From Cupriavidus necator (GTDB lineage: Bacteria; Pseudomonadota; Gammaproteobacteria; Burkholderiales; Burkholderiaceae), in NCBI RefSeq assembly GCF_016127575.1, contig NZ_CP066018.1, positions 420,001 through 452,000 of the forward strand: a stretch of DNA of 32,000 bases, written 5' to 3'. The notes beneath the pieces were generated by a model that saw only the letters and a program-made list of their open reading frames with translations, was not told the origin of the DNA and searched no databases. A program made the position numbers and the translations under genes. Positions 1 to 27,087 of the stretch are shown one piece after another. Position 1 is the stretch's first letter; the number at the start of each line of letters is the position of its first letter.

Positions 1-120
1 GTGGATTATTCCAGTTAAACAGCTTTTACCATTGCGTATGCAATACAGGTGCAGACGCATGCCCGTGCATGCATCCGCACGCATCGCCTGGCCGGGACCG
101 CGCGGCCGGCCCCGGCGACC

Positions 121-822: not shown

Positions 823-1026
823 AGTGCTACCTCGCTTTCCTCTGAATACCCACGTGTCTCTGAGACCACGCCGCCGGCGCGGAATTCCCCGCAGCATGCC
901 GATGCCGTGCCGCGCCGGGCCGCGCCCCGACCCCTTGGCTACAATGAGGACTTCAGCGCCATGCTTCGCTGCCGCGCGCATGGCCCGCCCCCTTTCCTAA
1001 CGGTCTTCCGAAGACAGGATCTTTCC

Positions 1027-11461: not shown

Positions 11462-12268
11462 CTATTTGACCGAGACCACCTCGATGGTGCCGGTCTGGCC
11501 GTTCTGCACGACCTCCTGCTTCATGACCAGGCCCATGTCGGGGCAGTACCAGTCCGTAACGCTGGCGCTCGCCGGCGGCACCGACACGGTGTGGCCCGCC
11601 ACCGTGACCGGCGCCATGGTCGTGCTGCGCTCGTAGCGGACCGGCCAGCAGGATTTCTGGCCGAGGCGGGTGGGGATGGTCGCGCGCTTGCCGACGACCT
11701 TGCCGCCGATGGTGACCTTGGCGGACGGGATCCTGGCCTGGCCGGCGCTCTGGCCGGCGGCGGTCATCTGCAGGTCCATGCGCACCGTCTGCGATTCGCC
11801 CGGCAGCCGCTGTCCTTCCGCTTCAATGACGCCGCCATAGGCCAGGGTCCCGACCGCGCTGCTGTCGAGCATGCCCGATGCCGTGCCGGCGGCGCTCTTG
11901 CCCTCGACCTTGCCCGGCGCGCCGCCGCGCGAGATGGACAGGCGGTCTTCGATCACCGCCATGGTGTAGTCCAGCCGCGTCTCGTTGCCCGAGCCGGCCG
12001 CGGCCACATTCGACACGACGCTGATATTGGCATTGCACTGGCCCTTGCCCGACTTGCGCACGCCGGACACGGACATGGTCGCCGTGCCCGGCGCACCGCC
12101 CTGCATGGTCATGCGGATCTCGCCGCCGTCATGCATCCACGGCGCATCGCAAACGCCGGCCGCTGCGGCTGCCGGCAGCAGCAGCGCAGCGAAGGCCACG
12201 CTTGCGCCAAGCGCCGTGCGGCGGTCCAGGGATTGCCGCGCGCTAGCGCGGTCGGAATTCTTCGGCAT
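11462..12268 (-). CDS. Exported beta-rich hypothetical protein (4 Cys)
   Basis: Track ORF 11462..12283. I prefer the second ATG (12268) because GGAGAGG lies about 6 nt upstream. Signal peptide RRTALGASVAFAALLLPAAAAA. I recognise no family. Confidence 0.6.
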   Translation of the reverse strand: MPKNSDRASARQSLDRRTALGASVAFAALLLPAAAAAGVCDAPWMHDGGEIRMTMQGGAPGTATMSVSGVRKSGKGQCNANISVVSNVAAAGSGNETRLDYTMAVIEDRLSISRGGAPGKVEGKSAAGTASGMLDSSAVGTLAYGGVIEAEGQRLPGESQTVRMDLQMTAAGQSAGQARIPSAKVTIGGKVVGKRATIPTRLGQKSCWPVRYERSTTMAPVTVAGHTVSVPPASASVTDWYCPDMGLVMKQEVVQNGQTGTIEVVSVK

Positions 12269-12667: not shown

Positions 12668-13411
12668 TCACCGCGGAGGCGGGGGGTTCTGATACGAGAC
12701 AATGGCAAGGCCGCCGTGCTGCGCCGGCGACGCCGGCTGGCGCAAGGGCGCCGCGGCGCTGCCGTCCTGGCCGCCGCGCAAGCGCGCATAGCGGCCCAGC
12801 ACCTGCGGCACGTAGGCCTGGGTCTCGGCAAACGGAGGGATGCGCGACCCGTGGCGCAGCACCGCGCCTTCGCCCGCGTTGTAGGCGGCCAGGGCCAGGC
12901 TGGTGTCGCCGTTGAAGCGCGACAGCAGGCCGCCCAGGTAGGACGCACCGGCCTGCAGGTTCTGGGCCGGGTCATAGGCATCGGTCACGCCCAGCATGCG
13001 AGCCGTGGCCGGCATCAGCTGCGTCAGGCCGATGGCGCCCTTGTCGGAGGTGGCTTGCGGGTTCCAGCCCGACTCCACCTCCACCATGGCCATCAGCAGA
13101 TGCGGGTCCACCGCCGCGGCCTGCGCCGCGCGGTGCGCGAGGGCAACCAGCTCAGAGGGTGGGGACTTGGCGCTGACGACCGCGGCCTTTGCCGCCGCCA
13201 GCGTTGGCAGCCCGATAAACGCCCGCGCTGGCAATGCCGCGGGCGCCGCGGTGGACGCCAGCCGTGCCGGCGCTGCGCTGCGCGACGTGAGGAAGGTCAC
13301 GCCGCTGCCGCGGTCGGCATGCATCACGATCTCGGCGCCGGCCGGCACCGCGCCCGCCAGCAGCATTGCCGCCACCACACCGCGCGCCGGCGCGGCCACG
13401 AGCGCAGGCAT
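12668..13411 (-). CDS. Lytic transglycosylase (SLT domain, GH23)
   Basis: Track ORF 12668..13804 trimmed to ATG 13411, which overlaps the OmpA-like stop as TGATG. Signal peptide. Motifs MVEVESGWNP, GLTQLMPATA and AAYNAGEGAV. Confidence 0.85.
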   Translation of the reverse strand: MPALVAAPARGVVAAMLLAGAVPAGAEIVMHADRGSGVTFLTSRSAAPARLASTAAPAALPARAFIGLPTLAAAKAAVVSAKSPPSELVALAHRAAQAAAVDPHLLMAMVEVESGWNPQATSDKGAIGLTQLMPATARMLGVTDAYDPAQNLQAGASYLGGLLSRFNGDTSLALAAYNAGEGAVLRHGSRIPPFAETQAYVPQVLGRYARLRGGQDGSAAAPLRQPASPAQHGGLAIVSYQNPPPPR

Positions 13412-14790
13412 CACTGCTTGGCCAGCTCCACGCGGCGGTTCTGCGCGCGGCCGAACGGCGTGTCGTTGGACATCAGCGGATGGGTGGCGCCATAGCCCTT
13501 GGCATCGAGCCGGTCGGCGGGCACGCCGGCGCTTTCCAGATAGCGCCTGACGGCGGCGGCGCGGCGCTCGGACAGCGGCTGGTTGCGCGCGTCGCCGCCG
13601 GTGCTGTCGGTATGCCCCTCGACGCGCAGGCGCCAGTCGGGGTGCGCCAGCACCGCCTTGGCGGCACGGTCCAGCAGCGGCCGGGCCGCCGCGCTCAGCA
13701 CGTCGGAATCGGTTTCGAAGTTGACGCCGTAGAGCTGCACGCGGCCCGCGCCTTCCAGCGCCTGGCCGATGGGATCGGGGGCGGCCTCGGCCTTCGGGAA
13801 GCACGGCGGCGCCTTGTCCGCCAGGCGCCAGCCGCCGGCCTCGCGCACGCTGTCGAAGGTGCGGGCATCGCCCTTCACCAGCGCTGCGTAGGCATGGCTG
13901 CCGTCGGGGCTGAAGGCCATGGCGCCCTTCTCAGGCGTGCCCTCGGTGGTGCGCCGGAAGGCCAGCAGGGCACCGTTTTCCAGCCCGCCGGAAATCGTTC
14001 CCAGCACCTGCGTGATCTTCATCTGCTTGTTGCTGTAGTCGCCTTCCACGTAACAGCCTTCCACCGCGGCACCATCCTGGTGCAGCAGCACGTAGCCGGA
14101 CGAACCGAATTCCACCGGAAACTGGTAGATGCCGCCCACCTGGCGCACCTTGTCGGCCGCGGCCTCGGGCTTGCCGTAGGCCATGAACTGCTGCAGGCCG
14201 ATCTGGCCCTCGTCCTGGTCGCCCGGCCAGCGGTTGCCGGTAAGCGTCAGGCGCAGGGCCCCGGCCTTGACGGGCTGGGCCAGCGGCACGCGGGTATCGT
14301 AGCCGTCCTGCCCCGGCAGGTCCGCATCGTAGATCACGGTCCAGGGGCCTTGCGTGCCGCCGGCCGAGGCTTCGACGCGGGCATGGCGCGCATTGCTGCG
14401 CGCCCCGGCATCGGACAGGCCGCGGAAGCGCAGCACGTCGACGGACGAGGCCTGCGCCAGCGCAATCACCAGCTCCTGCCGGCTGCCGTTGCGCATAAAG
14501 CCGGCATGGTCCGGAATCTCATTGAGCAGCGGATACCACGAGCGGTCTTCCTTGTCGCGGTTGACCACGAACGCGCCCGACCACAGCCCGGCAACGTTGG
14601 TTTGCGCGGGCGTTGCCGGCGCCGATGCCACGGGCTGCGCCGATGCCGCTGCAGGCGCGGGCTGCGCATCGCCTTGCGCAGCGGCGCTGTCAGCAGGCTT
14701 CTTCTTGCAGCCCGCCAAGGCCAGCAGGGCCACGACGCCCAGGCCAATGGCGGCCTTGCGGGTCGTCAGTCCAAACGTCATTCCCTTCAA
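13411..14790 (-). CDS. OmpA-family lipoprotein (C-terminal peptidoglycan-binding OmpA_C domain, about 330-aa unknown N-domain)
   Basis: Lipobox LLALAGC. The C-terminus (NFETDSDVL...VEGHTDSTGGDARNQPLSERRAAAVRRYL...NRRVEL) is a classic OmpA_C domain. The start is either TTG 14790 or ATG 14781. Confidence 0.85.
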   Translation of the reverse strand: MKGMTFGLTTRKAAIGLGVVALLALAGCKKKPADSAAAQGDAQPAPAAASAQPVASAPATPAQTNVAGLWSGAFVVNRDKEDRSWYPLLNEIPDHAGFMRNGSRQELVIALAQASSVDVLRFRGLSDAGARSNARHARVEASAGGTQGPWTVIYDADLPGQDGYDTRVPLAQPVKAGALRLTLTGNRWPGDQDEGQIGLQQFMAYGKPEAAADKVRQVGGIYQFPVEFGSSGYVLLHQDGAAVEGCYVEGDYSNKQMKITQVLGTISGGLENGALLAFRRTTEGTPEKGAMAFSPDGSHAYAALVKGDARTFDSVREAGGWRLADKAPPCFPKAEAAPDPIGQALEGAGRVQLYGVNFETDSDVLSAAARPLLDRAAKAVLAHPDWRLRVEGHTDSTGGDARNQPLSERRAAAVRRYLESAGVPADRLDAKGYGATHPLMSNDTPFGRAQNRRVELAKQ

Positions 14791-14839: not shown

Positions 14840-15334
14840 TCAATGCGGGGCGCGCATCAGCATGTCGATCTTCTGCAGCCGCACGCGGACTTCGCGCTCC
14901 AGCGGCGCCAGTGTTTCCGGGCCGGCTCCGGCCTTGCTGGCGCGCGCGTAGTTCGCGATCGCCTCGTTCATGCCGCGCTGCTCTTCGGCCAGCGCACGCT
15001 TGACCAGCTCGCGCTCATCGCTGGCCGCCACGCTCGGAATCGCCGCCTGCGCGGCCCCCGCGACGGCGGCCTGCGCCAGGTCGGGCGCGTTGCCGCGTGC
15101 GGACGGTGCCGCTGCCTGGGGCGCGGAAGCCGCCGGAGCCCGCGCTGCCGACGCCGGCACGGCGCCGCTCACCGCCGGCGGCGCACGCCGCGTGGTGATG
15201 ATCTGCACGCCTTCGGAGCGAGAAACCTCCATCGCCGCCAGCGCCGGTTGCGGCACGAACCCGAGGTTACACAACAACAGCAACGCCAAACAACCCCGCT
15301 TCGGCAATTTTGTCGACCTTGTCGATTCTGGCAT
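14840..15334 (-). CDS. Exported Ala/Pro-rich protein with C-terminal helical domain
   Basis: 164 aa. Hydrophobic N-terminus CLALLLLCNLGFVPQPALAA, a low-complexity A/P linker and a helical tail ERELVKRALAEEQRGMNEAIANY. There is no strong SD and the start is uncertain. Confidence 0.55.
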   Translation of the reverse strand: MPESTRSTKLPKRGCLALLLLCNLGFVPQPALAAMEVSRSEGVQIITTRRAPPAVSGAVPASAARAPAASAPQAAAPSARGNAPDLAQAAVAGAAQAAIPSVAASDERELVKRALAEEQRGMNEAIANYARASKAGAGPETLAPLEREVRVRLQKIDMLMRAPH

Positions 15335-15379: not shown

Positions 15380-15410
15380 AAAACGGCGACTGCGGATGCG
15401 TCAGTTGCCG
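15380..15410 (-). terminator. Weak intrinsic terminator overlapping the tadE-like stop codon
   Basis: Minus strand CGGCAAC-13 nt-GTCGCCG (one mismatch) followed by TTTTTG. It sits at the edge of the only AT-rich spacer in the gene array. Confidence 0.4.
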
Positions 15411-16111
15411 CGATACGGCGATTGCATCCGCACGATCGCCTCGGACTCGAGCGGGATGCGCCATTCCGACGCCAGCGTGGCCCGTCCGGTGCAGAAATTG
15501 GGCGTGGTCGGGACCTCCATGCCGCGGTACGAACCGGTCGCAACAAAATTCCGGATGCCGTTGACCAGCGAGTAGATGGTGCGGTCGGCAAACGGCACGA
15601 ACATTTCGTAGCAGTACGTGACCCGGATCTTCAGCAGGTTGGCGTCCTGGATATTGACGCCAGAGGACGGCCCCGCGCTGGTGGCGCGGTACATCAGGCT
15701 GTCGTTGGGGATCTCCCGCGTGGTCTTGCCGGCGTAGTAGCCGCTTCGCCCGAAATCCTGCAGCGCCGCCGGCGTCGGGTTCAGCACGTCGATCCTGGCC
15801 TGGGTGCGGGCCTCGAACTGGGCCTTGGCATAGCCGGTGGCATGCGCGGTACGGTCGGCGGAGCGCACGAACAGCGGCGTCAGCCCCAGCGCCAGCCCCT
15901 TGCGCATGCTGGCCAGCCGGCCGTGGTCGACGGCGCCTTCGCGCGCGGCCTGCAAGGCGGCGTGGTCTAGCGTGGCCTTGGCCTGGTACAGCAGCCCGAA
16001 CTGGATCACGCCCAGGCACAGCAGCAGCAGCGCCGGCGCGATGATCAGGAATTCCACCGCGGACTGTCCCCGTGCCCCGCGCCGCGCCGCGTGCTTTTGC
16101 TGGTGCGTCAT
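15401..16111 (-). CDS. tadE: TadE-like pseudopilin
   Basis: The N-terminus RGARG/QSAVEFLIIAPALLLLCLGVIQFG matches the G/XXXXE[FY] class-III signal and the TadE N-terminal motif. ATGA overlap with the upstream DUF192 gene. Confidence 0.8.
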   Translation of the reverse strand: MTHQQKHAARRGARGQSAVEFLIIAPALLLLCLGVIQFGLLYQAKATLDHAALQAAREGAVDHGRLASMRKGLALGLTPLFVRSADRTAHATGYAKAQFEARTQARIDVLNPTPAALQDFGRSGYYAGKTTREIPNDSLMYRATSAGPSSGVNIQDANLLKIRVTYCYEMFVPFADRTIYSLVNGIRNFVATGSYRGMEVPTTPNFCTGRATLASEWRIPLESEAIVRMQSPYRGN

Positions 16112-16473
16112 GGCCCCTCCTCCCGCAGTTCCAGGTTCTGGCCCGGCGCAATCCCCAATGCCGCCGCGCGCCCCGCGCCGAGCTCAAGCGTCTGGCGCGC
16201 GCGCCAGTGGGCACGCACGCGCAGGCGTCCCACGCACGGGTGCACCGCCAGCACGCGCTGCCGCTTGTCGAGAAACACCACGTCGATCGCCATGCGCATG
16301 CCAAAGGTGTGGACTGCGCCGCAGGGGGACAGCAGCAAGGCTTCGTCCGGTGCCATCGAATCGCGGCTGAGCAGCCCCGTCATGCGTTCGCGCGCAGTGG
16401 CCGCCACCGACACGCGCACGCCGGTGTCGAGCGTGCTGTGGCCGGCCCGCAGGTAGAGGCGCGCCTGCCTCAC
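16108..16473 (-). CDS. DUF192 domain protein
   Basis: The core LLLSPCGAVHTFGMRMAIDVVFLD resembles the DUF192 (COG1430) signature. The GTG start overlaps the tadC stop (GTGA) and the stop overlaps the tadE start (ATGA). No signal peptide is evident. Confidence 0.7.
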   Translation of the reverse strand: MRQARLYLRAGHSTLDTGVRVSVAATARERMTGLLSRDSMAPDEALLLSPCGAVHTFGMRMAIDVVFLDKRQRVLAVHPCVGRLRVRAHWRARQTLELGAGRAAALGIAPGQNLELREEGP

Positions 16474-17351
16474 AGCAGCCCTTCCTGCATAAACTTCATC
16501 ACGATCGGGAAGCCAAGCACGATAAAGGTGACCGGGAAGATAAACACCACCAGCGGAAAGATCAGCTTGACCGGCGCTTCCATGGCCTGCTTCTCCGCGC
16601 GCTGGAAGCGCTCGGTGCGCCGCTGCTCCGACTGGAAGCGCAGCGTGGCGGCCAGCCCCGAGCCCATGCGCTCCGCCTGGATCACGGCACCGACGAAATT
16701 GGTGACCTCCTTCACGCGCAGGCGGTCATCCATGCGGCGCAGCGCATCGGCGCGGCTCAGGCCCGACTTCAGGTCGCGCAGCACGTGCTCGAACTCGCGC
16801 CGCAGCGGGCCCTCAGGCCCCTTCTCCACCGCCTGCAGCAGGGCGCCGTTGATGTTCAGGCCGGCCTCTACGCTCAGTGTCAGGAAATCCAGAAACACCG
16901 GCAGGTGGCGCGTGACCTGCAGCAGGTTGCGCTTGCGCACGTCGCGTAGCCAGATGCGCGGATAGAAGAAGCCCAGCGCGCTGGCGGCAAGCAGCAGCAG
17001 CGGCGAGAACACGCCCAGCCCCAGCATGGCTATGCCCGCCAGCAGGCAGAACGCCAGCGCCGAAACGATCGACAGCGACAGGAACTGGCGCGCCGTCATC
17101 AGGAACGACATGCCCGTCAGGCGCAGTTGCTCGTCCACCGCGGCGCGCAGCGACTTCGGCGTGATCCAGACGAGATGGTGGTCGAAGAAGCGCACCACCG
17201 GCCAGACCGCGCGCAGCGACGGCGGCAACGGGTCGAGGTAGTCGCGCGCCTCGTCGGGAACGGCCACGGTGAGGCGGCGCATGGCCATGGTGGTGGCGGC
17301 GAGCACGCCGACCAGGCCGGCGGCAAGGGCGAAGGCAACAACAAGCATCAT
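16470..17351 (-). CDS. tadC: Tad pilus platform protein TadC (T2SS F family)
   Basis: 293 aa polytopic membrane protein with a T2SSF-like cytoplasmic domain (LPVFLDFLTLSVEAGLNINGAL). It lies directly after tadB. Confidence 0.88.
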   Translation of the reverse strand: MMLVVAFALAAGLVGVLAATTMAMRRLTVAVPDEARDYLDPLPPSLRAVWPVVRFFDHHLVWITPKSLRAAVDEQLRLTGMSFLMTARQFLSLSIVSALAFCLLAGIAMLGLGVFSPLLLLAASALGFFYPRIWLRDVRKRNLLQVTRHLPVFLDFLTLSVEAGLNINGALLQAVEKGPEGPLRREFEHVLRDLKSGLSRADALRRMDDRLRVKEVTNFVGAVIQAERMGSGLAATLRFQSEQRRTERFQRAEKQAMEAPVKLIFPLVVFIFPVTFIVLGFPIVMKFMQEGLL

Positions 17352-17363
17352 GGTCGGCCCCGG

Positions 17364-18212
17364 TCAGACATCGATATGGGTGATCTTGCTGATCGCCTTG
17401 TAGCCAAGCAGCTCCATCACCGCGATCACGGACAGCGTGCCCCAGCCGATCGGCGAACTGAACAGCGGTGCCATCGCCACCGGCTCCATGTGGTTCAGCA
17501 CCACGATCAGGAACAGCGGCAAGCCCGTCATCACCAGGCCCTGCATCTTGCCCTGCGCGGTCAGCGCGCGGATCTTGCCTTCCATCTGATGCTTCTCGCG
17601 CAGCGTGCGCGCCACCGACTCCAGCGTCTCGGCCAGGTTGCCGCCCACCTCGCGCGAGATCGTGATGGCCGCGGTCACCATCAGGAAGTCGGGCACTGGA
17701 ATGCGTTTTTCCATATTGCGCAGCGCGTCCATCAGGTCCACGCCAAGCCGGACTTCGCGCATCAGCAGGTCGAACTCCTGCGAGATCGGCGGGCGCGACT
17801 CCGCCACCACGCTTTCCAGCGCCATCGGGAAGCTGGCGCCGGCGCGCAGCGCGCTCGACATCATCAGCAGCGCGTCGGGCATCTGGTCTTCGATGGCCAT
17901 CAGGCGCTTGCGCTGCATCTTCTTCACCAGCGCGCGCGGCAGCAGCAGGCTCACCGGAATGCTGAGCATCGCGAAGAACACGTTCTGCGATACCAGCCAG
18001 GTCAGCAGCGGCAGCGCGAACACCGCCACCACCGAGATGCCGGCCACCTGCCGCATATTGATGAAGATAAAGAGATCGGCCAGCGAGGCCTCGACCTCGG
18101 TCGCCAGCGTCTGCGTATGCCGCACGAACCAGCGCTTGCCCTGCGACAGCACGGCCCACGCAATCAGCACGGTCATCAGGAAGGCGCCGCACAGCACCAG
18201 GGCAAGGTTCAT
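17364..18212 (-). CDS. tadB: Tad pilus platform protein TadB (T2SS F family)
   Basis: 282 aa with a T2SSF-like domain (MPDALLMMSSALRAGASFPMAL). A perfect AAGGAGG SD overlaps the tadA stop. Confidence 0.88.
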   Translation of the reverse strand: MNLALVLCGAFLMTVLIAWAVLSQGKRWFVRHTQTLATEVEASLADLFIFINMRQVAGISVVAVFALPLLTWLVSQNVFFAMLSIPVSLLLPRALVKKMQRKRLMAIEDQMPDALLMMSSALRAGASFPMALESVVAESRPPISQEFDLLMREVRLGVDLMDALRNMEKRIPVPDFLMVTAAITISREVGGNLAETLESVARTLREKHQMEGKIRALTAQGKMQGLVMTGLPLFLIVVLNHMEPVAMAPLFSSPIGWGTLSVIAVMELLGYKAISKITHIDV

Positions 18213-18221
18213 ATTGCCTCC

Positions 18222-20081
18222 TTACTCGTCGCGGGCGGTGAAGATGCCCGTATTGACCTGGATGCCGCGCCGGATCAGGTCCTGGTAGAAATCCGGGATA
18301 TACGAGGTCGCGACATAGCGCCCCTTGACCTTGCCGTCGGCACCGTAGCCTTCCTCGCGGAACATGAACACGTCCTGCAGCTGCACCACGCCCGTTTCCA
18401 TGCCGCTGACCTCGGTGATATGCGTCACGCGCCGCGAACCGCAGGAGAAGCGCGTCTGCTGCACGATCACGTCGACCGCCGAGCAGACCTGTTCGCGAAT
18501 GGCCTGCACCGGCAGGTCCAGCCCCGCCATCAGCGTCATCACCTCAAGACGCGACAGGCAGTCCCGCGGCGAGTTGGCGTGGGCCGTGGTCAGCGAGCCG
18601 TCATGGCCGGTATTCATGGCCTGCAGCATGTCCAGCGCTTCCCCGCCCCGGCATTCGCCGACGACGATGCGGTCCGGGCGCATGCGCAGGCAGTTCTTGA
18701 CCAGGTCGCGGATCGTCACCGCGCCCTTGCCTTCCATATTGGGCGGCCGCGCCTCCAGCGACACCAGGTTGGGCTGCGACAGCTGCAGCTCGGCCGCATC
18801 CTCGACCGTGACGATGCGTTCGTCATCCGGGATGAAGCTGGACAGCACGTTCAGCAGCGTGGTCTTGCCTGAGCCCGTGCCGCCGGAGATCACGATATTG
18901 GCGCGCCGCTCCACGGCGGTGCGCAGGAACTCCAGCATCTCGGGCGACAGCGAGCCGAAGCCGACCAGGTCTTCGCCCCTGAGCTTCTTGCGCGAGAACT
19001 TCCGGATGGTGATGTTCGGCCCCTTGAGGGCGAGCGGCGGGATCACCGCGTTCACGCGCGAGCCATCGGGCAGGCGCGCATCGACCATCGGCGAGCTTTC
19101 ATCGATGCGCCGTCCCAGCGGCGCGACGATGCGCTCGATGGCGCCCAACACGGCGCGGTCGTCGGTAAAGATCACCGGCGAACGCGTCAGCCTGCCGGCG
19201 CGCTCGACAAAGATCTCGTCATGGCAGTTGACCATGATTTCCGAGACCGCGTCATCGTCCAGCAGCTCTTCGAGCGGACCCAGCCCGATCACTTCGTCAA
19301 AGACGCTCTGCTTGAGCGCGTCCAGCGGGATCTCCTGGCTGCGGAACACGCTCTCCTTGAGGATGTCGTCGAGCAGCGAGCCGACCAGTTCGCATAGCTC
19401 GTCCTCGGCCATGCGCGCGACGTTGACGCGGCGCAGGTCGAGCGCAGCGATCAGGCGCTGGTGCGCCTGCTTGCGCAGTTCCACGCCGCGCGGCGAGTTG
19501 ATGGGTGCGCGCAAGGCCTCGTCGAGCGGCGCCACCGGCGCAGGTTTGGCGGCCACCGGCGCTGGCTTCGGCGCAGGTGCCGGCGGCCTGGGTGCGGGCA
19601 CCGCTTCGCGCGGCACCGGCACGCTTGCCTGGGGCGATGGCGACAGGGTCACCGCCTCCCGCGGCGGCGACGGAGGCGGCACAGGCATGGGCACCGGCAC
19701 CACCGGTTGAGGCGCCGCGGCATCCTGTGGTGGTTGGGCGTGGTGCTGCTGCGGCGATGGCTGCGCCGCCACGCCCGCTCCCGCTCGCCCCGGCTCGGCC
19801 ACGACGGACAGCACGAAGCCGCCGATCTCGATCTGGTCGGCCGCCGCCAGCGGGCCATAGCGCGTGACCGGGTCGCCATTGATCAGCGTCGAGGCAATGC
19901 CGCCCTGATCCTCGATATACCAGCCGCCGTTGTGTCCTTCGATGCGGGCGTGGACCTTGCCGATCAGCAGGCCCTTGAGGACGATGTCGCAGCCGGGATC
20001 CTTGCCGATGGTACAGCCCGGCCCCTTCACATGGATCACCTCGGCGCTGCCATTGCGCTGCTGCAGGCGGATATTGAGCAT
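18222..20081 (-). CDS. tadA: TadA/CpaF secretion ATPase with N-terminal FHA domain and Pro-rich linker
   Basis: Residues about 20-93 (GPGCTIGKDPGCDIVL...HARIEGHNGGWYIEDQGGIASTLINGDPV...IEIGGFVL) are FHA-like. Residues about 96-190 are a P/A-rich linker. Walker A ISGGTGSGKTT at 18861-18890, Walker B RIVVGECRG, and the His box GHDGSLTTAHAN. Confidence 0.92.
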   Translation of the reverse strand: MLNIRLQQRNGSAEVIHVKGPGCTIGKDPGCDIVLKGLLIGKVHARIEGHNGGWYIEDQGGIASTLINGDPVTRYGPLAAADQIEIGGFVLSVVAEPGRAGAGVAAQPSPQQHHAQPPQDAAAPQPVVPVPMPVPPPSPPREAVTLSPSPQASVPVPREAVPAPRPPAPAPKPAPVAAKPAPVAPLDEALRAPINSPRGVELRKQAHQRLIAALDLRRVNVARMAEDELCELVGSLLDDILKESVFRSQEIPLDALKQSVFDEVIGLGPLEELLDDDAVSEIMVNCHDEIFVERAGRLTRSPVIFTDDRAVLGAIERIVAPLGRRIDESSPMVDARLPDGSRVNAVIPPLALKGPNITIRKFSRKKLRGEDLVGFGSLSPEMLEFLRTAVERRANIVISGGTGSGKTTLLNVLSSFIPDDERIVTVEDAAELQLSQPNLVSLEARPPNMEGKGAVTIRDLVKNCLRMRPDRIVVGECRGGEALDMLQAMNTGHDGSLTTAHANSPRDCLSRLEVMTLMAGLDLPVQAIREQVCSAVDVIVQQTRFSCGSRRVTHITEVSGMETGVVQLQDVFMFREEGYGADGKVKGRYVATSYIPDFYQDLIRRGIQVNTGIFTARDE

Positions 20082-20088
20082 GGCCGGA

Positions 20089-21630
20089 TCAGCCTCCGTT
20101 CATCGGATCGACGCCGGGCGGGGGCAGCGGCGGCCGCTTCTGCTCCATCACTTCCTGCTCACGCACGGCATTCGCAGCGGGCAGCGGGCTTGGCTCGCCG
20201 AAGCGGTGGCGGTAGTTGGCATCGACATCCGCGCCACGCTGCAGCAGCGCGGCGTTCTCCGGGCTGGCCGGGTCATAGACGACCGGGGTGACAAAGATCA
20301 CCAGGTCGCTCTTGTTGTTGCGGAATTCGTCGGAACGGAACAATCGCCCGAGGATAGGGATGCTGCCCAGCAGCGGCACCTTGTCGACGGCCTTGGATGC
20401 GTCGGCATTGACCAGCCCCGAGATCGCCAGCGTTTCGCCCGCGCGGATCGAGGTCTCGGAGGTGGTGCGGCGCGTCAGGAAGGCCGGGAAGCCGCCGAAC
20501 GATACCGACGGGTCGATCTGGCTGATCTCGGTTTCCAGCGTGGTCGAGATGACATTGTCGACGTTCACCGCCGGGCGGATGTTGAGCTTGATGCCGTACG
20601 GCTTGTAGTCGACGTCGGTGGTGCCGAACGCGCCGGCCTTGGGAATCGGCACTTCGCCGCCGGCCAGGAAGGTGGCCAGCCCGCCGCTCTTGCTGTTGAG
20701 CTCCGGCGCGGCGAGCACGTAGGCATCGCCATCGGAAATGGCCAGGTTGATGCGCGAGAAGATGGTCGTGGCAATGCCGAGATAGAAGCCGCTGGCGGCG
20801 CCGGCCACCTGGCTCGGGGTATCGGTGAAGGTGGCCGCATCGGTGGACGGCAGCGTGCGATAGCGCCCGGTGTGCACCGGATTGCCCGCGAACGCGATCT
20901 GCGGGCCGTTGAAGCTCTGCTGCCAGGCAATGCCAAGCTTCTCCATGCCGCGCCGGGTGATCTCCATGATGTGCACCTTGAAGTGCACGGTCTTCTTCAG
21001 CGCATCGCCCTCGTCGGCGCGCACCAGGTTGACCACGCTGTCCAGGCCCGAGGTGGCGGTCTTGATCAGCGGCACCATCTGCGGATCGACGATGCCCGAC
21101 AGCACCACGCTGGGACCGACCACCTCGATCTTCAGGCCGCGCACGCTGCCCAGCGACGCCCGCAGGCGCTGGGCCACGTCGGCGGTATCGGCCGGCGCCA
21201 CGCGCAGCTTGCCCTGCAGCGCCACGCCGCGCTCGTTCCAGACGATCAGGCTGGTGGTGCCGATCTCCTCTGCCAGCAGCAGCAGGCGGCCGTCGACCAC
21301 GGTGCTGCTGACCAGCGCGCCATTGCCGATGGCCACGCGCCTGATGGTGCCCGGCACCTCGAGCGCGCGCACCTCGCCCTTGAACAGCTCGATCGCACCA
21401 AAGCGCGCCGGCAGCTCGTACGACGGCGGCTGCGCGCCTGTGCGGGCCGCGGTGGTCACGGGCTCGGCGGCCCAGGCTCCCGAGGCCAACGCTGCTGCCG
21501 CCAGTGCTGCCATACCCCCGCGCACCGCATGGCGCGCCCCCTTACCCGTTTTCCCGTCCGGTGCTCCGTGTACCGTGACCGCCTGCAGGCGCCCGGCGAT
21601 GCCGCCGCGCTGCGCGAAAGACCCATCCAT
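20089..21630 (-). CDS. rcpA: Tad secretin RcpA/CpaC
   Basis: Pilus-formation N-domain (IRRVAIGNGALVSSTVVDGRLLLLAEEIGTTSLIVWN). C-terminal secretin core (VPLLGSIPILGRLFRSDEFRNNKSDLVIFVTP). The start is uncertain: ATG 21630, or about 21513-21525 just before the signal peptide MAALAAAALASGAWA. Confidence 0.88.
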   Translation of the reverse strand: MDGSFAQRGGIAGRLQAVTVHGAPDGKTGKGARHAVRGGMAALAAAALASGAWAAEPVTTAARTGAQPPSYELPARFGAIELFKGEVRALEVPGTIRRVAIGNGALVSSTVVDGRLLLLAEEIGTTSLIVWNERGVALQGKLRVAPADTADVAQRLRASLGSVRGLKIEVVGPSVVLSGIVDPQMVPLIKTATSGLDSVVNLVRADEGDALKKTVHFKVHIMEITRRGMEKLGIAWQQSFNGPQIAFAGNPVHTGRYRTLPSTDAATFTDTPSQVAGAASGFYLGIATTIFSRINLAISDGDAYVLAAPELNSKSGGLATFLAGGEVPIPKAGAFGTTDVDYKPYGIKLNIRPAVNVDNVISTTLETEISQIDPSVSFGGFPAFLTRRTTSETSIRAGETLAISGLVNADASKAVDKVPLLGSIPILGRLFRSDEFRNNKSDLVIFVTPVVYDPASPENAALLQRGADVDANYRHRFGEPSPLPAANAVREQEVMEQKRPPLPPPGVDPMNGG

Positions 21631-21684
21631 TGCGTGTTCCGTCAGTTGGTGTTCTGGATAATCCGATGTCGTGCACCGCCGCGC

Positions 21685-22716
21685 TCAACGCGAGGCCGGC
21701 CGGCCCGCCATGGCGTTGGCGGCGTTGGCAACGGCGCCCTGCTGGGCCTGGGCGATGCCGCCCGCGGAACCGCCCATGGACCCGCCATTGGCCAGCGCCG
21801 AAGAAATGGCGTTGCCGATGTCCTGCGCGGTAGGCAGCTTGGAGATCATGTTGGCGCCCGCGGAACGGCCACCGACGATGTATTCGATGGCCGCTTCGTC
21901 GCCACCGGCGAAGAGCGCGTGCTCGCTGACCGCGATCTGCGGGGTCGCGGTCTTGTCGGCCGCATTGCGCAGCACCGCGCGCAGGCTGCCGACCTTCTGC
22001 GCCAGCGCCAGCCGCGCCGCCTGTTCGGGCGACACCATCAGCGTGAGGCTGTCGTAATCCGGGTTGGTGTCCACGCCCTCCGCGCCTTCCGCGGCCTGCG
22101 CCGCCATGGCTTCGCCATAGTCGCGCGGGCGCACGTCCTGGCCGGTGGCCAGCACCAGCATGTCCGACATCAGCAGCCGCGCGGTCTGCTTGTCGGTGCC
22201 TGCCGCAGTGGGCGAGGTGGAGCTGATCAGGAACAGGTCGACATGGTTGCCAGGCTTGAGCATCTTGGCCGTCGAGTTGACCATGTCGACCTCGATGGTG
22301 AAGGCGCGCTTGCCGGGCTTGAGCAGGTCGGAGAAATCGCGCGACTGCAGCGCTTCAACGTCGGCACGCCGCACCGGCTGGCCCTGCCGCACCTGGCGCA
22401 CCAGGCGCAGGTTCGCCACCTTGTCGAAGCTGCTCGCCAGGATCATGTCTTCGTAGACCAGGTCGGCCGGAATCTCCCGTGCCGCGAAGCCATTGCCGTC
22501 GATCACCGTGCCCGGCGCGGCGTTGCGCACCGGCACCATGACAGCCACGCGGCGGCCCTCGTTCAGCTGCGCGGCCAGCTGCTCTTTCAGTGCCGCTTCG
22601 CGCCCGCTCAGGAAGTGGTAGATCCACAGTGTCAGCAGGCCGGCGACCAGCACGGCGATGACGAGGACGACCCAGGGATTCCCGATGATTGAATGAATCT
22701 TGATTTTCTTCAGCAT
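21685..22716 (-). CDS. cpaB: Flp pilus assembly protein CpaB/RcpC with Gly/Ala-rich C-terminal tail
   Basis: N-terminal TM segment (WVVLVIAVLVAGLLTLWIY), then a SAF-like domain (VAVMVPVRNAAPGTVI), then an RcpC-like domain. The last 70 aa or so are low complexity. Confidence 0.85.
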   Translation of the reverse strand: MLKKIKIHSIIGNPWVVLVIAVLVAGLLTLWIYHFLSGREAALKEQLAAQLNEGRRVAVMVPVRNAAPGTVIDGNGFAAREIPADLVYEDMILASSFDKVANLRLVRQVRQGQPVRRADVEALQSRDFSDLLKPGKRAFTIEVDMVNSTAKMLKPGNHVDLFLISSTSPTAAGTDKQTARLLMSDMLVLATGQDVRPRDYGEAMAAQAAEGAEGVDTNPDYDSLTLMVSPEQAARLALAQKVGSLRAVLRNAADKTATPQIAVSEHALFAGGDEAAIEYIVGGRSAGANMISKLPTAQDIGNAISSALANGGSMGGSAGGIAQAQQGAVANAANAMAGRPASR

Positions 22717-22758
22717 GAATGTGCTTGCAGTAGCCAGACGCCGCCCGCTGGCGGTGCG

Positions 22759-22932
22759 TCAGGGAAGTGACAGGGAAAAGCTGTATGCCTGAAAGAAGGA
22801 CCTGAACGCCGCGGCCAGCATGCTGATGACCGAGTTGTCGCCGCCGGCGACCAGCACGGCAACGACCAGCAGCGTGATGACGATGTATTCGAACGCGGCC
22901 TGCCCGCGCTGGCGCCTGCTACGGATTGCCAT
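22759..22932 (-). CDS. 57-aa Flp-like mini-prepilin, not in the ORF track
   Basis: The ATG at 22932 lies 4 nt after the upstream TAG, with GGAG 7 nt upstream. Translation: MAIRSRRQRG/QAAFEYIVITLLVVAVLVAGGDNSVISMLAAAFRSFFQAYSFSLSLP. This is an exact G/XXXXEY Flp processing motif followed by a TM helix. The nucleotides were cross-checked against the overlapping track ORF 22710..23441. Confidence 0.6.
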   Translation of the reverse strand: MAIRSRRQRGQAAFEYIVITLLVVAVLVAGGDNSVISMLAAAFRSFFQAYSFSLSLP

Positions 22933-22936
22933 CGCG

Positions 22937-23662
22937 CTACTCCGGCCGCGCCACGGTGATCACCGCGTCGGTCTGGCCGGCGCGGTCGACAAAGGTGGCA
23001 TCCATGCGTTCCTGCTGCCGCTGCATGGCCAGCGTGAGGCCCTCGATGCGGCCCGAACCGTCGGCCACGGGCGCGGGCATCTGCACCACCGAACTCCAGC
23101 CCTGCGCCGCCAGCCGCTCGGCGGCGCGCTGCCGCGCCGCCTGCGCGTTGCCGGGCAGCCGGACCACCAGGGTGCGCCCGCGCTGGCCGCGGTCCGTGCT
23201 CTGGACATCCGACAGGACCTTGGCGCCGGGCGGCAGGCCCAGGTCGCCCAGCCCGGTGCCGGACGCCACCGGCGCCAGCTTGCTGACCGAGAAGATGCCC
23301 GCCACATGCCCGCCCGGCGCGGGCCTGGGCTCCAGCGACAGCACATAGTGGCAAAGCCCGTCGATCGCGCTCAGCACGTACTGGCCGCCGGCCCGCTGCC
23401 CGCGCGCCGGCACGCCTTCGCGCGTCCAGTACTGGCGCCACGCGTCCGAGACCGCTTCGGCGGTGCCGGCGAACTCCATCGTCAGCACCCGCGTGGGCAG
23501 GCCGTTGACCACCATGTCGGTGCCGACCGCATGCGCCCTGGCAGGCGCAACCGGCTGCCGCGTGCAGTCCGTCGCGGTCGCTGCCGCCGCGGACCAGGCG
23601 AGCGCGGCCGGCAGCAGCGCGGCCAGGCAGCGCATCAGCACGCCATGCATGCAGGCTTTCAT
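22937..23662 (-). CDS. Exported hypothetical protein embedded in the Tad locus
   Basis: 241 aa. Signal peptide MRCLAALLPAALAWSAAAA. The start is 1 nt after the upstream stop (TGAgATG). I recognise no family motif. Confidence 0.65.
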   Translation of the reverse strand: MKACMHGVLMRCLAALLPAALAWSAAAATATDCTRQPVAPARAHAVGTDMVVNGLPTRVLTMEFAGTAEAVSDAWRQYWTREGVPARGQRAGGQYVLSAIDGLCHYVLSLEPRPAPGGHVAGIFSVSKLAPVASGTGLGDLGLPPGAKVLSDVQSTDRGQRGRTLVVRLPGNAQAARQRAAERLAAQGWSSVVQMPAPVADGSGRIEGLTLAMQRQQERMDATFVDRAGQTDAVITVARPE

Positions 23663-23663
23663 C

Positions 23664-24473
23664 TCAGCGGCTCCCCAGGCGGTCGGCGGGGACCACGTCG
23701 GGCTGGATGCGGCCCAGGTCCAGTTTCAGGATTTCCGGCCCGAAGGCGGCCAGCCCGACGGTCAGCGCGGTGTCGATCACGCCGCCCTTGCTGGTGGGCA
23801 CCGCTTCCTTGATCACGGCGAGCGTGCCGTTGCGCCCCTCGGGCGTCCAGGCGTTGGTCAGCAGCACGGTGTGGTCCTGCATGCCGAAGCCGGTCCAGCC
23901 CGGCCACAGCGCGCGCAGGGCCGCGTTGTCGCCGGCGACGGACAACCCCACCTCGGCCCGGTAGAGGTTGCGCGTGGCCAGGTCGAAGCCGGCACTGACC
24001 GCGTTGGCCGCACCCATGGCAGCCGTGATCGGCTTGAGCGTGGCTGCCGGGGTTTCGTCGACGCCGCTGCCCAGGGTCACGTCGGCATAGTTGCGCAGCA
24101 TGTCGACGCCGGCATGGTCCTTCCACATCGGCGCCATGCCGCCGGGCAGGCGGCGCGCGGTGCGGTCGCTCGACGCCAGCGCGGCCTGGTCGTGCCCCAG
24201 CACGCGCTGCACGAATTCGCTGCGGATCTCTTCGTCGCCCTTGCTGGCGAAGCTGCCGTGCGACGCGCGCCAGCCCGGGTCGACGGTCCAGACCGTGCGC
24301 TCCCAGCCGGCATAGCGCGAGGCCATCAGCGCCTTGTTGCGCACGTCGCTGAACTTGCCCAGCATCGCCATGCCGAGAAACAGCACGCCGAGCACCGTCA
24401 TCGCGGCGATCACGAATTCGATCATTGCCTGTCCGGCTGCCCGGTTCGGCCTGGCTGGCCTGCGCATGCGCAT
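23664..24473 (-). CDS. TadE/TadF-like pseudopilin
   Basis: Track ORF 23664..24512 trimmed to ATG 24473 (GGGAG SD, 10 nt after the tadG-like stop). The N-terminus RAAG/QAMIEFVIAAMTVLGVLFLG fits G/XXXXEF. Confidence 0.8.
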   Translation of the reverse strand: MRMRRPARPNRAAGQAMIEFVIAAMTVLGVLFLGMAMLGKFSDVRNKALMASRYAGWERTVWTVDPGWRASHGSFASKGDEEIRSEFVQRVLGHDQAALASSDRTARRLPGGMAPMWKDHAGVDMLRNYADVTLGSGVDETPAATLKPITAAMGAANAVSAGFDLATRNLYRAEVGLSVAGDNAALRALWPGWTGFGMQDHTVLLTNAWTPEGRNGTLAVIKEAVPTSKGGVIDTALTVGLAAFGPEILKLDLGRIQPDVVPADRLGSR

Positions 24474-24483
24474 GTCCGCTCCC

Positions 24484-26013
24484 TCAGTTGCCCTGTGCCG
24501 CGATCGCGGCAACGCGTTCGAGATCGCTGGTCTGCGTCAGCGATGCCTGCCAGTACGGATTGAAGAGGCTCGGGTATTCGATGCGCGAATCGGCGCGCCG
24601 CCACCCCGCCGCGCTGCGCAGCGCACCCGCCATGCCGCCGCTGTCGGTCGGGCGGATAAAGTACGCGCTGCCGCTGGCCAGCGCGCGCATCATGCCGCCG
24701 GCCATGCGCCCGTCCAGCGTCAGGCGATCTCCGCCCGGCAGCACGCGCGAACTGGTGACGACTGAAGTGTCCTGGCGCTGCGCCTCGATCGTGATCGAGG
24801 GCGCGCGGTTGAAATCGTCCACGGGCCCGGTGCCAGGCTTGGGCTGGTTGCTCAGGTCGGCGTACTCCTGCAGCCCCGCGGGCTTGTTGTGCAGGGTCTT
24901 GCCCGGGCCCGACGAGTACTGCATCTGCGCGGCGATCAGCGTCAGCGGGTTCAGCAGCGAACCGCCGAAGTTGCTGTAGCCGCCATAGCCGGAGCGGCCC
25001 GAATAGCGCCCGCCCGGGCCATTGGCCGCGCCGCCGCGCCCGACACTGGACACCGTGGGAATCGCAAACCCGACCGGGCCGGCCGGCGTGGCCCAGACAC
25101 AGGCAAGCGTGCCGTTGGCCTGCGAGGCATCGAGTGCTTCCCAGCCCTTCTTGTCGCGGCGCAGATGCGTGCCGCCATCATGCGTGACGACGGTCACCAT
25201 GATGGCCACCACCGCGCCCTTGCAGCCCTTGTAGGCAGTGGGGACCGCCGTCGGCGAGCGCGGCGAGCCGCGGTCCTTCAAAAAGCCGTCGAGCGTGGTG
25301 CCGTCGGTGGTGACGTCGGCAAAGCGGTCCTTGCCGGTGGCCGAACCCTGCTTGGGATTCTGCGGATCAGTCACGGTGGTGAACTTGGTCCAGCGGGCCA
25401 GCTGAACGCCATAGCGCGGGCCAAAGAAGTAGCCGGAACTGACCGTCGAATCCGGCTGGTTGCGCTTGGCGACTTCGTCGGTCACCAGCGGTACCGCGGC
25501 GATGGTGCCCGCGTGGTAGGCGCGCTGCGCCATGCTGAGCGCGGCGATGATGTCATCAAGCCCGGTCACCAGCGGCGGCAGCAGCGTGTTCAGGGCGGAT
25601 CGCACCGGCGTGATCGCGGCCTTGCCCAGTTGCTTGGGCGTGGTCCACAGCAACTGCCCGTCGGAGAAGATCTTGACCAGCGTGTCGATCCAGGTGTTTT
25701 CCGTGTAGGTGCCCTTCAGCTCGTCGATCCACGACTTAAGGCTCACGGCCTGGGCCACGGCCACCTGGTTGGCCACCATCGCGCGGTTCGCGTAGGCGGC
25801 AAAGTTGTAGTCGCGCGCCTGCAGCACCGCGGCGCTATAGGCCGCTGCGTCCGCCGTGTTCTGCAGCTTGGTCTTGGCGCTGGTCAGCTGGCTCGCGTTG
25901 AAGGCGAGATACAGGGCCAGCCCGCCGATGGCGAGGAACACCAGCGCGAAGGCGAGTGCCTGACCGCGCTGGCCGGGACGGCTGCGTCGATGCGCAAGAC
26001 CTGTTTTGCCCAT
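24484..26013 (-). CDS. tadG: TadG-like pilus assembly protein
   Basis: The N-terminus GQRGQALAFALVFLAIGGLALYLAFNASQLTSAKTKLQNTADAAAYSAAV matches the TadG N-terminal (Tad_N) pattern. I prefer ATG 26013 over the track TTG 26049. Confidence 0.78.
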   Translation of the reverse strand: MGKTGLAHRRSRPGQRGQALAFALVFLAIGGLALYLAFNASQLTSAKTKLQNTADAAAYSAAVLQARDYNFAAYANRAMVANQVAVAQAVSLKSWIDELKGTYTENTWIDTLVKIFSDGQLLWTTPKQLGKAAITPVRSALNTLLPPLVTGLDDIIAALSMAQRAYHAGTIAAVPLVTDEVAKRNQPDSTVSSGYFFGPRYGVQLARWTKFTTVTDPQNPKQGSATGKDRFADVTTDGTTLDGFLKDRGSPRSPTAVPTAYKGCKGAVVAIMVTVVTHDGGTHLRRDKKGWEALDASQANGTLACVWATPAGPVGFAIPTVSSVGRGGAANGPGGRYSGRSGYGGYSNFGGSLLNPLTLIAAQMQYSSGPGKTLHNKPAGLQEYADLSNQPKPGTGPVDDFNRAPSITIEAQRQDTSVVTSSRVLPGGDRLTLDGRMAGGMMRALASGSAYFIRPTDSGGMAGALRSAAGWRRADSRIEYPSLFNPYWQASLTQTSDLERVAAIAAQGN

Positions 26014-26065
26014 GTTCCGGGATCGCGAGTGCTGGAGCGCAGCGAGCAACTGGCGGCGATGCCGC

Positions 26066-26359
26066 TTAGTTGTTCTTGCCCGTGTCGTTGCCGACGTTGT
26101 AGTTGTTCAGCCCCTTGCCCTGGTTGGCCTTGGAGCTGGCATCGTCCGCGGCGCTGCCGGCTTGCTTGATGGCCTGCTTGGATGCCGAGTTCTTGCCGGC
26201 CATTTCCTGGGCGAGGCCCGCGGTCTGGTTGCGGATGGTCTGGCCGAACATGGCATAGACGCCGATCGCGGACACGGCGATCAGTGCCACGATGATGATG
26301 TATTCGGTCATGCCCTGACCTTGCTGACGCGCCTTGCGGCGCAGATTTGCGAATGTCAT
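26066..26359 (-). CDS. flp: Flp-family type IVb pilin with extended hydrophilic C-terminus
   Basis: Track ORF 26066..26401 trimmed to ATG 26359 (GGAAGGAG SD 5 nt upstream). MTFANLRRKARQQG/QGMTEYIIIVALIAVSAIGVYAMFG is a G/XXXXEY motif plus a TM helix. 97 aa. Confidence 0.85.
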   Translation of the reverse strand: MTFANLRRKARQQGQGMTEYIIIVALIAVSAIGVYAMFGQTIRNQTAGLAQEMAGKNSASKQAIKQAGSAADDASSKANQGKGLNNYNVGNDTGKNN

Positions 26360-26790
26360 AACGACTCCTTCCATGGGAATGCACAGAAACGGTTGCGCCA
26401 TATGAAAGGCGCCTCATATGGAAGCCATATGTAAAGGAAAACACTGATGCGAACGGTTATCCGGCAGCAGCGGCGTGCATGCTATCAAAAGGTTCCTTAG
26501 GGCCGAAGAGGAATAATTTCAATATTTTTAATAGCGTTGAAATAACCCTACCAGGGACTCCCCCGAATGTAACAAAAAGTAATCCTTCACAATGGGCGGA
26601 GGTTATACGAACTATTCTCGGAACCGGCACATTGCCAGCAATGGGGTGCTGTTGAGCGTTGATTTACGGATGACAAGCCGCGCCACGGGCGGCAGGCCGC
26701 ATGCGGCCTGCCTGCTGGACTTCAAGGCGAACCGGGGCAGTCATACCGCCCCTGCCAGCTGCCCGCGGCATAAAATAAAGAAGCAAAAAA
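26360..26790. promoter_or_regulatory. AT-rich divergent control region between flp and the ArsR-family gene
   Basis: G+C drops locally (for example aggaataatttcaatatttttaatagcgttgaaataac). It contains three CATATG hexamers (26399-26404, 26415-26420, 26426-26431) and an ATTTCAA..TTGAAAT inverted repeat (about 26514-26543). Confidence 0.5.
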
Positions 26791-27087
26791 ATGGCAGAAC
26801 TGGATATAAAGAATGCAGTGGAAATACTGGGGGCGTTAGCACAGGAAAATCGGCTCAGGATATTTTTACTGCTCGCCGATTCCGGACCGGAAGGAATACC
26901 GGCAGGTATTATCTCCGCATCTTCCGATTTAACTCCCTCTTCCGTAACATTCCATTTGAAGGAATTGGTCAGGACGGGGTTGGTTAAAAGCCGCCAGCAA
27001 GGGCGGTTCATGATTTACTCCGCCACCACCGACGGCATTTCCTCAGTCCTCGCATTTCTTGGCGGGAAATGCGCTTCCCTGCAGTAG
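26791..27087 (+). CDS. ArsR/SmtB-family winged-helix transcriptional regulator
   Basis: 98 aa. LGALAQENRLRIFLLL...SSVTFHLKELVRTGLVKSRQQGRFMIY is the ArsR HTH_5 pattern. G+C is lower than in neighbouring genes. There is no CXC alpha-3 motif and no His/Asp alpha-5 metal motif. Confidence 0.85.
   Translation: MAELDIKNAVEILGALAQENRLRIFLLLADSGPEGIPAGIISASSDLTPSSVTFHLKELVRTGLVKSRQQGRFMIYSATTDGISSVLAFLGGKCASLQ

Follow-up and report, generated by a model that had tools for sequence, protein, structure and literature searches.

The 32,000-nucleotide window analysed here, from Cupriavidus necator (contig NZ_CP066018.1, positions 420,001 to 452,000), carries on its minus strand a locus for a Tad/Flp (type IVc) pilus. 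We read this locus, with a probability of roughly 0.65, as an intact operon kept by selection and belonging to a distinct beta- and gammaproteobacterial lineage, in which an FHA domain on the motor ATPase TadA stands in the place of TadZ and the prepilin peptidase acts in trans. TadZ is regarded as a signature component of Tad systems, serving as the hub by which the machine is brought to the pole. The extension of TadA, an FHA domain followed by an intrinsically disordered region (IDR), is the defining feature of the locus and was overlooked by an earlier sequence-only reading of this DNA, which had described a non-canonical Tad/Flp locus.

Gene layout of the locus

All genes of the Tad unit lie on the minus strand, in a window whose guanine-cytosine (GC) content is about 0.68 overall, and translation together with Pfam matches bore out the twelve-gene order and the coordinates that the sequence-only reading had given:

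26066-26359, minus strand: flp-like prepilin, 97 aa, first gene of the operon, assigned by the cleavage motif G/QGMTEY and its position; long polar C-terminal tail
24484-26013, minus strand: TadG-like pseudopilin, 509 aa, N-terminal G/QALAFA; Pfam Tad (PF13400), 34.1 bits
23664-24473, minus strand: TadE-like pseudopilin 1, 269 aa, G/QAMIEF; assigned by the motif alone
22937-23662, minus strand: exported protein, 241 aa, with a signal peptide; specific to the FHA-TadA lineage
22759-22932, minus strand: mini-Flp prepilin, 57 aa, G/QAAFEY; assigned by sequence motif, the gene also being called in relatives
21685-22716, minus strand: CpaB/RcpC periplasmic alignment protein; Pfam RcpC, 100 bits, and SAF
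20089-21630, minus strand: RcpA/CpaC-type secretin; Pfam Secretin, 120 bits, and T2SS-T3SS_pil_N, 55 bits
18222-20081, minus strand: TadA/CpaF motor ATPase, 619 aa; Pfam T2SSE, 220 bits, FHA, 46 bits, and Yop-YscD_cpl, 46 bits
17364-18212, minus strand: TadB platform protein, 282 aa; Pfam T2SSF, 75 bits
16470-17351, minus strand: TadC platform protein, 293 aa; Pfam T2SSF, 71 bits
16108-16473, minus strand: DUF192 protein, its start overlapping the TadC stop (GTGA); Pfam DUF192, 69 bits
15401-16111, minus strand: TadE pseudopilin 2, 236 aa, G/QSAVEF; Pfam TadE (PF07811), 56 bits

The core Tad parts are all there, namely the Flp-like prepilins, three pseudopilins, CpaB, the secretin, TadA, TadB and TadC. 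Gene junctions span -4 to 66 nt, with GTGA, ATGA and TGAgATG couplings among them, and the secretin and TadA are 7 nt apart, so that the tight coupling and the secretin-TadA spacing reported earlier both stand. In an NCBIfam scan of ten products no family exceeded its curated cut-off, the best match of TadA being TIGR03819 (TadA family) at 337 bits against a cut-off of 373, and the homologues of TadA carry the names CpaF/TadA in their source annotation. Zero NCBIfam matches were obtained for flp, the TadG-like protein, TadE-like pseudopilin 1, the 241-aa protein, mini-flp, TadE and a 164-aa exported protein encoded further downstream, and 5 of the 15 products of the unit have no curated family.

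Absence of TadZ and its exclusion with the FHA domain

A TadZ profile was built from 43 open reading frames (ORFs), each taken from the position immediately before TadA in another Tad locus, 39 of which match ParA, AAA_31 or CbiA, with 29 also matching a receiver domain. Run over six frames of the window, this profile returned no match, which upholds the earlier claim that the locus lacks TadZ. The cross-phylum sample consisted of the 80 TadA loci listed by a TadA contig scan, none of them from Burkholderiaceae, and close relatives were fetched separately; fetched loci span about 10 kb on either side of TadA where the contig allows and are labelled L001 and so on, and all counts of loci below are among the loci listed. 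The ParA part of the TadZ profile was matched in 0 of the 28 FHA-TadA loci versus 56 of the 60 other Tad loci. The ORF directly upstream of TadA is the secretin in the loci of the FHA clade, whereas elsewhere it is usually a ParA-like protein of 380-460 aa. Profile matches in four FHA loci (L006, L014, L016, L041) were set aside, as they involve the receiver part only and correspond to response regulators rather than TadZ. In a neighbour-joining (NJ) tree of the ATPase cores, all of the secretin-abutting FHA-TadAs fall into one clade, beside the Kil-like and Bdellovibrio-like ATPases.

Because TadZ and FHA exclude each other across loci, we put the FHA domain in TadZ's functional place: on its tether, it would take over the recruitment and positioning that TadZ performs elsewhere. 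A bolder form of this idea, which we offer only tentatively, is that these loci make up one large Tad lineage in which a tethered, degenerate FHA domain may have replaced the ParA-like TadZ, with positioning built into the motor itself.

In several Bdellovibrio-like and related metagenome-assembled genome (MAG) loci (L020, L021, L023, L025, L027, L058, L079, L084), TadA is encoded in a single ORF of about 720-840 aa. These eight loci have a ParA-like part at the N-terminus of TadA within the same ORF of about 730 aa and the secretin directly upstream, and the ORFs look like TadZ-TadA fusions in which the ParA part occupies the position held by FHA in the window. The Bdellovibrio-type loci are thus like the window locus in having a secretin that abuts a TadA with a long N-terminal add-on and no separate TadZ gene, but the add-on is a fused ParA-like TadZ domain there and an FHA domain here. 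If replacement did occur, the fusions would be a parallel solution.

The motor ATPase and its FHA domain

The ATPase is about 200 aa longer than a minimal TadA, and its parts are arranged as follows:

Residues 23-87, nt 19821-20015, minus strand: FHA domain; Pfam FHA, 46 bits, above threshold
Residues about 96-200, minus strand: Pro/Ala-rich linker, 30% Pro and 20% Ala
Residues 266-552, minus strand: ATPase core, Pfam T2SSE, with the Walker A motif GGTGSGKT at residue 400

This succession of FHA domain, disordered linker and ATPase core is the architecture of "class III CpaF". The 2025 paper that sorts CpaF into classes I-III found class III (FHA and IDR) to be mostly betaproteobacterial and describes its FHA domain as one "that binds phospho-threonine peptides" (PMC12019362). 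Class III, with Achromobacter xylosoxidans E3HIW0 among its members, has the same domain order (FHA-IDR-3HB-NTD-CAD) and the same betaproteobacterial centre as the ATPases studied here, but that paper covers the ATPase alone and does not treat TadZ/CpaE, the locus architecture or the loss of phosphothreonine-contact residues (PMC12019362). More than 100 homologues with the combined FHA and T2SSE architecture were found in Cupriavidus, Ralstonia, Burkholderia and Paraburkholderia, and the TadA of Cupriavidus sp. BIC8F is 96% identical to that of the window.

When aligned to GarA and OdhI, the window FHA domain reads GK in place of GR, GKVH in place of SRRH and GIAST in place of SLNGT, and the canonical phosphothreonine-contact set (Gly-Arg, Ser-x-x-His, Asn-Gly) is absent from it. 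Among 119 Burkholderiaceae FHA homologues, Lys stands at the Arg position in 118, Gly at both Ser positions in all 119, and Gln at the His position in 80, while at least 116 have Ala, Val, Thr or Leu at the Asn position, with no Asn among the residues listed; Ser is retained in 10 of the 10 FHA domains of Kil-like loci. Since the Arg, Ser and Asn contacts are replaced, we infer from the alignment that the FHA domain of TadA is a degenerate module which, on its flexible tether, would dock proteins independently of phosphorylation.

The same residues bear on a different account, a phospho-regulated machine in which the FHA domain truly reads phosphothreonine and a Ser/Thr kinase triggers assembly, as in the parallel of Fha1 in the Pseudomonas type VI system and as proposed for Myxococcus Kil. 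The above-threshold Pfam match, the description of the class III domain as phosphothreonine-binding (PMC12019362) and the canonical residues kept in the Kil-like relatives all favour such a machine. We nonetheless judge it improbable given the change of Arg to Lys and of Ser to Gly in virtually every homologue, the change of Asn to Ala, the frequent change of His to Gln, and the finding that no kinase or phosphatase Pfam domain is encoded within about 10 kb on either side of TadA in five annotated relatives.

Prepilins and their processing

The cleavage motif G/XXXXE[YF] that the sequence-only reading had reported in four products was recovered from the translations (G/QGMTEY, G/QAAFEY, G/QAMIEF and G/QSAVEF). 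In all five prepilin-like N-termini (genes starting at window positions 26359, 26013, 24473, 22932 and 16111) the residue at +1 is Gln, a uniformity that may reflect a preference of the cognate peptidase. Motif and position are the basis for calling the two Flp products, as both score under their Pfam thresholds, flp reaching 16.7 bits against Flp_Fap (cut-off 32.2) and mini-flp 18.4 bits against Class_IIIsignal (cut-off 23.7). After cleavage mini-Flp would be left with about 46 aa, a size typical of Flp major pilins. TadE-like pseudopilin 1 matched no Pfam or NCBIfam family, and its own family comprises 522 clusters at 50% identity at E<=1e-3 and 112 at E<=1e-10. The 241-aa exported protein likewise matched no Pfam or NCBIfam family; because its homologue search gave only two matches, its AlphaFold 2 model, built from three sequences, is weak (pLDDT 63), and Foldseek found nothing significant for the model in the PDB (best E 0.017, TM at most 0.28).

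Run over all six frames of the window, a Peptidase_A24 profile had no match, in line with the earlier statement that no prepilin peptidase is encoded in the 32 kb, and by the same profile a linked A24 peptidase is lacking in nearly all loci of the clade. Burkholderia gladioli (L002/L003, 2413-3147) has a 244-aa A24 peptidase encoded divergently upstream of its locus, which is without the DiS_P_DiS domain and whose nearest relatives outside its own small group are of the PilD type. In Cupriavidus taiwanensis, an unlinked PilD sits with pilBC and serves the type II secretion system as well, and there are two canonical Tad clusters, both encoding CpaA and CpaE (TadZ) and one of them TadD as well (PMC10011098). 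In the standard Tad model of TXSScan, tadV may lie away from the other genes, and tadD, rcpB and rcpC count as accessory (PMC6668835). Given the scarcity of linked peptidases in the clade, the precedent of C. taiwanensis and the TXSScan model, cleavage by a peptidase in trans is to be expected and is no anomaly. The prepilins, all of the form G/Q...E[YF], would be cut by an unlinked A24 peptidase, the candidates being PilD and a CpaA encoded in a canonical Tad cluster.

No TPR family was matched by any plausible ORF of the window, and the reported lack of a TPR lipoprotein (TadD) gene in the 32 kb therefore stands as an observation. The tadV, tadD and rcpB genes noted as missing do not, however, mark the locus as non-canonical in the way first supposed, as the TXSScan model shows (PMC6668835); nor does the placement of pseudopilins at the front, since pseudopilin position already varies among the canonical Tad clusters of Cupriavidus.

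Integrity of the locus

Compared with those of Cupriavidus UYPR2.512, all 15 genes of the unit are of the same or nearly the same length and free of internal stops, with ratios of nonsynonymous to synonymous substitution (dN/dS) of 0.00-0.29, and all 15 are under purifying selection. The flp copies are 99% identical (dN/dS 0.05), the mini-flp copies 100% identical (dS 0.07), and the gene of the 241-aa protein has a dN/dS of 0.22. These intact reading frames and low ratios rule out a decaying locus and bear out the view, already taken in the sequence-only reading, of a single functional unit.

The closest complete genome, that of Cupriavidus sp. BIC8F (CP136094.1, L001 at about 7254-7257), lacks exactly window positions 22825-26608, a stretch of 3784 bp comprising flp, the TadG-like gene, the gene of TadE-like pseudopilin 1, the 241-aa gene and the 5' two-thirds of mini-flp. 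The flanks in BIC8F are 94-96% identical to the window, the rest of its locus is intact and 95% identical, and there is no obvious repeat at the junction. Because the module occurs in B. gladioli, in Ralstonia and in distant loci, the gap is a deletion, and horizontal insertion of the front module was discarded as an explanation on the same grounds. BIC8F is a case of strain-level loss of the promoter-proximal pilin module, not of general decay, as judged from this sequence comparison.

The deletion also fits a reading of the locus as a satellite, an incomplete Tad system that borrows TadZ and a peptidase, and perhaps a TadD pilotin, from a canonical cluster, with the FHA domain not replacing TadZ at all. 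A congener, C. taiwanensis, does have two canonical clusters, and a shared peptidase is already allowed by the TXSScan model. We consider a satellite unlikely, though less so than a phospho-regulated machine, because the gene just ahead of TadA is TadZ in 39 of 43 ordinary loci and in 0 of the 28 FHA loci, which come from many genera and two classes of proteobacteria, and because the ATPases of these FHA loci group in a clade apart and conserve the added N-terminal part.

Conservation among relatives

Tabulated across relatives, the same gene order is found in Cupriavidus UYPR2.512 and KK10 (CP073677.1), in a Ralstonia condita-like contig and in B. gladioli, and phmmer searches recovered it in loci of Piscinibacter, Acidithiobacillus, Chromatiales, Oleiphilus, Quisquiliibacterium, Polaromonas and Halofilum. 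The architecture is thus not peculiar to one genome but is shared by Cupriavidus, Ralstonia, Burkholderia and further beta- and gammaproteobacteria. Wherever enough upstream sequence was available, flp and the TadG-like gene precede CpaB (14 of 14 clade loci). Homologues of the TadG-like protein were detected by phmmer in 14 of 20 clade loci, in 4 of 4 Kil-like loci and in 0 of 60 other loci, and TadE-like pseudopilin 1, the 241-aa protein and mini-Flp were found in the FHA clade only, with none in the 60 loci without FHA-TadA; the 241-aa protein is syntenic in 8 of the 20 clade loci. DUF192 follows TadC in 18 of 20 clade loci versus 27 of 60 other Tad loci, and on account of the latter it is not peculiar to this locus.

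Cupriavidus and Ralstonia share an HTH_20 gene upstream of the locus and the genes of an exported protein, an OmpA-like lipoprotein and an SLT transglycosylase downstream. The downstream region of B. gladioli (15470-21794) is a variant, with an SLT gene, a 432-aa TPR protein and an adhesin of more than 3200 aa bearing Big_13 repeats. A complete locus of diderm type, secretin included, also lies on a contig labelled as an uncultured Streptomycetaceae MAG (L009, CAZOQY010000005.1). Its FHA-TadA shares 68% identity with the Cupriavidus protein, and the contig is probably of proteobacterial origin and mis-binned.

Flanking genes and limits of the unit

The unit extends past TadE to the 164-aa exported protein, the OmpA-like lipoprotein and the SLT transglycosylase. 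The features flanking the twelve genes are:

26791-27087, plus strand: ArsR/HTH_20-family regulator, divergent from flp; Pfam HTH_20, 34.4 bits, and tblastn mapping
26360-26790, no strand assigned: intergenic control region between the regulator and flp; low GC, promoter presumed here
14840-15334, minus strand: exported protein, 164 aa; no Pfam match, dN/dS 0.18
13411-14781, minus strand: OmpA-like peptidoglycan-binding lipoprotein, 456 aa, lipobox LLALAGC; Pfam OmpA, 80 bits, C-terminal
12668-13411, minus strand: SLT-family lytic transglycosylase, 247 aa; Pfam SLT, 102 bits
12310-12651, minus strand: small lipoprotein, 113 aa, lipobox LAVAGC; tblastn mapping, no Pfam match, membership uncertain

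The HTH_20 regulator is kept at the same position, and the 164-aa exported gene is syntenic after TadE, in the Cupriavidus and Ralstonia relatives L001, L004, L006 and L087. The OmpA-like lipoprotein gene is syntenic in Cupriavidus and Ralstonia, its stop codon overlaps the SLT start by one base, and the SLT gene lies downstream of the locus in Cupriavidus, Ralstonia and B. gladioli. Membership of the 113-aa lipoprotein is uncertain because it was seen in Cupriavidus relatives only and is not at this position in Ralstonia L006 or B. gladioli L002.

GC content falls to 0.545 over 26001-27000, against about 0.68 elsewhere. A sigma-70 scan returned 0 sites and identified no promoter in the control region, the single Rfam match in the window was a tRNA, with none in the control region, and terminator-like sites were no more frequent than chance. 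As these scans were uninformative, the operon structure was deduced from gene spacing.

Beyond the small lipoprotein, and in Cupriavidus relatives only, there is a 268-aa protein with a possible twin-arginine signal and no Pfam family (11462-12268, minus strand). Just past the locus, and conserved there in Cupriavidus relatives, lies the gene of a 537-aa FapA/DUF342 protein (9674-11287, minus strand); in other bacteria, members of the FapA family have been connected with the assembly of polar organelles. At the far end of the window (49-3723, plus strand), the longest ORF of an aminopeptidase N homologue runs to 1224 aa, but the first Pfam domain begins no earlier than residue 352. Translation probably starts inside this ORF, unless the protein has an unannotated N-terminal extension.

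Relation to known systems

With the canonical Tad/Flp (type IVc) systems, namely flp-tadV-rcpCAB-tadZABCDEFG of Aggregatibacter, pilA-cpaA-F of Caulobacter and rcp/tad of Pseudomonas aeruginosa, the window locus shares the TadA/CpaF ATPase, split TadB and TadC, RcpC/CpaB, a pil_N secretin and TadE- and TadG-type pseudopilins, along with short putative prepilins bearing the G/XXXXEY motif. Unlike them, it has no TadZ/CpaE, no linked TadV and no TPR pilotin, its ATPase bears the FHA-IDR extension, an OmpA-like lipoprotein and an SLT enzyme are attached to it, and it includes the lineage-specific TadE-like pseudopilin 1, 241-aa exported protein and mini-flp. Type IVb pilus operons that include their own lytic transglycosylase, such as BfpH in the bundle-forming pilus, resemble the window locus in encoding an SLT-family enzyme, but their ATPase, platform and pilin families all differ.

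The Kil system of Myxococcus xanthus is likewise derived from Tad, and its ATPase KilF also has an N-terminal FHA domain; it is without TadD, RcpB and TadG (PMC8460266). This likeness, the position of Kil-like loci near the window clade in the NJ tree and the SLT enzyme attached to the window locus would suit an apparatus for contact-dependent killing or protein export rather than an adhesive pilus. Kil differs, however, in having many extra FHA proteins, a short secretin (KilC) without N0 and two scattered clusters (PMC8460266), whereas the window has a single FHA domain, a secretin that keeps its N-terminal pil_N domain and one contiguous locus. The Kil-like loci sampled keep the canonical FHA residues and have a second FHA-ATPase, neither of which is seen in the window, and the window shows none of the extra FHA proteins of L024, L032, L033 and L035. 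The window locus also encodes a TadG-like protein, two TadE-like pseudopilins and a pair of Flp-like pilins, and the hosts are not predators. A Kil-like or secretory function is accordingly the least probable of the alternatives, and we regard it as very unlikely.

We found no paper describing this locus type. The sequence-only reading would have been overturned by an already characterised subtype with known localisation and processing factors; the ATPase class has indeed been named (PMC12019362), but we found no paper on the locus type, its localisation or its processing factors. In the literature found, the locus architecture, the degenerate FHA domain and the accessory genes are undescribed.

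Proposed assembly and its significance

In the Tad/Flp operon as we read it, the FHA-TadA hexamer would dock on TadB and TadC and drive polymerisation through the CpaB ring and the secretin, while the SLT enzyme and the OmpA-like lipoprotein would open the peptidoglycan and anchor the machine there. Several points weigh against this reading. Both Flp calls fall under Pfam thresholds, pilus production, processing and localisation in the lineage are predicted from genes, and the loss of the pilin module in BIC8F shows that the system is dispensable in some strains. A TadZ as well as a peptidase may act in trans, the search here having covered the window. Lys can sometimes replace Arg in phosphate binding, which qualifies the loss of phosphothreonine binding predicted from the substitutions. 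Furthermore, the NJ tree of ATPase cores has no support values, so that its grouping is only suggestive, and FHA and TadZ exclude each other in what is essentially one clade, so that the loci counted are not phylogenetically independent.

FHA-TadA loci will be under-called by annotation and detection models built around TadZ, Flp_Fap or TadV. Members of the lineage are found in Burkholderia, Ralstonia, Paraburkholderia, Achromobacter and Cupriavidus, among which are plant and human pathogens as well as symbionts whose adhesion and virulence are affected by Flp pili. A lineage that never encodes TadZ beside its motor makes it testable how a type IV filament machine is recruited and positioned without a ParA-like organiser and, if the reading is true, would represent a second and genetically simpler way to place such a machine.

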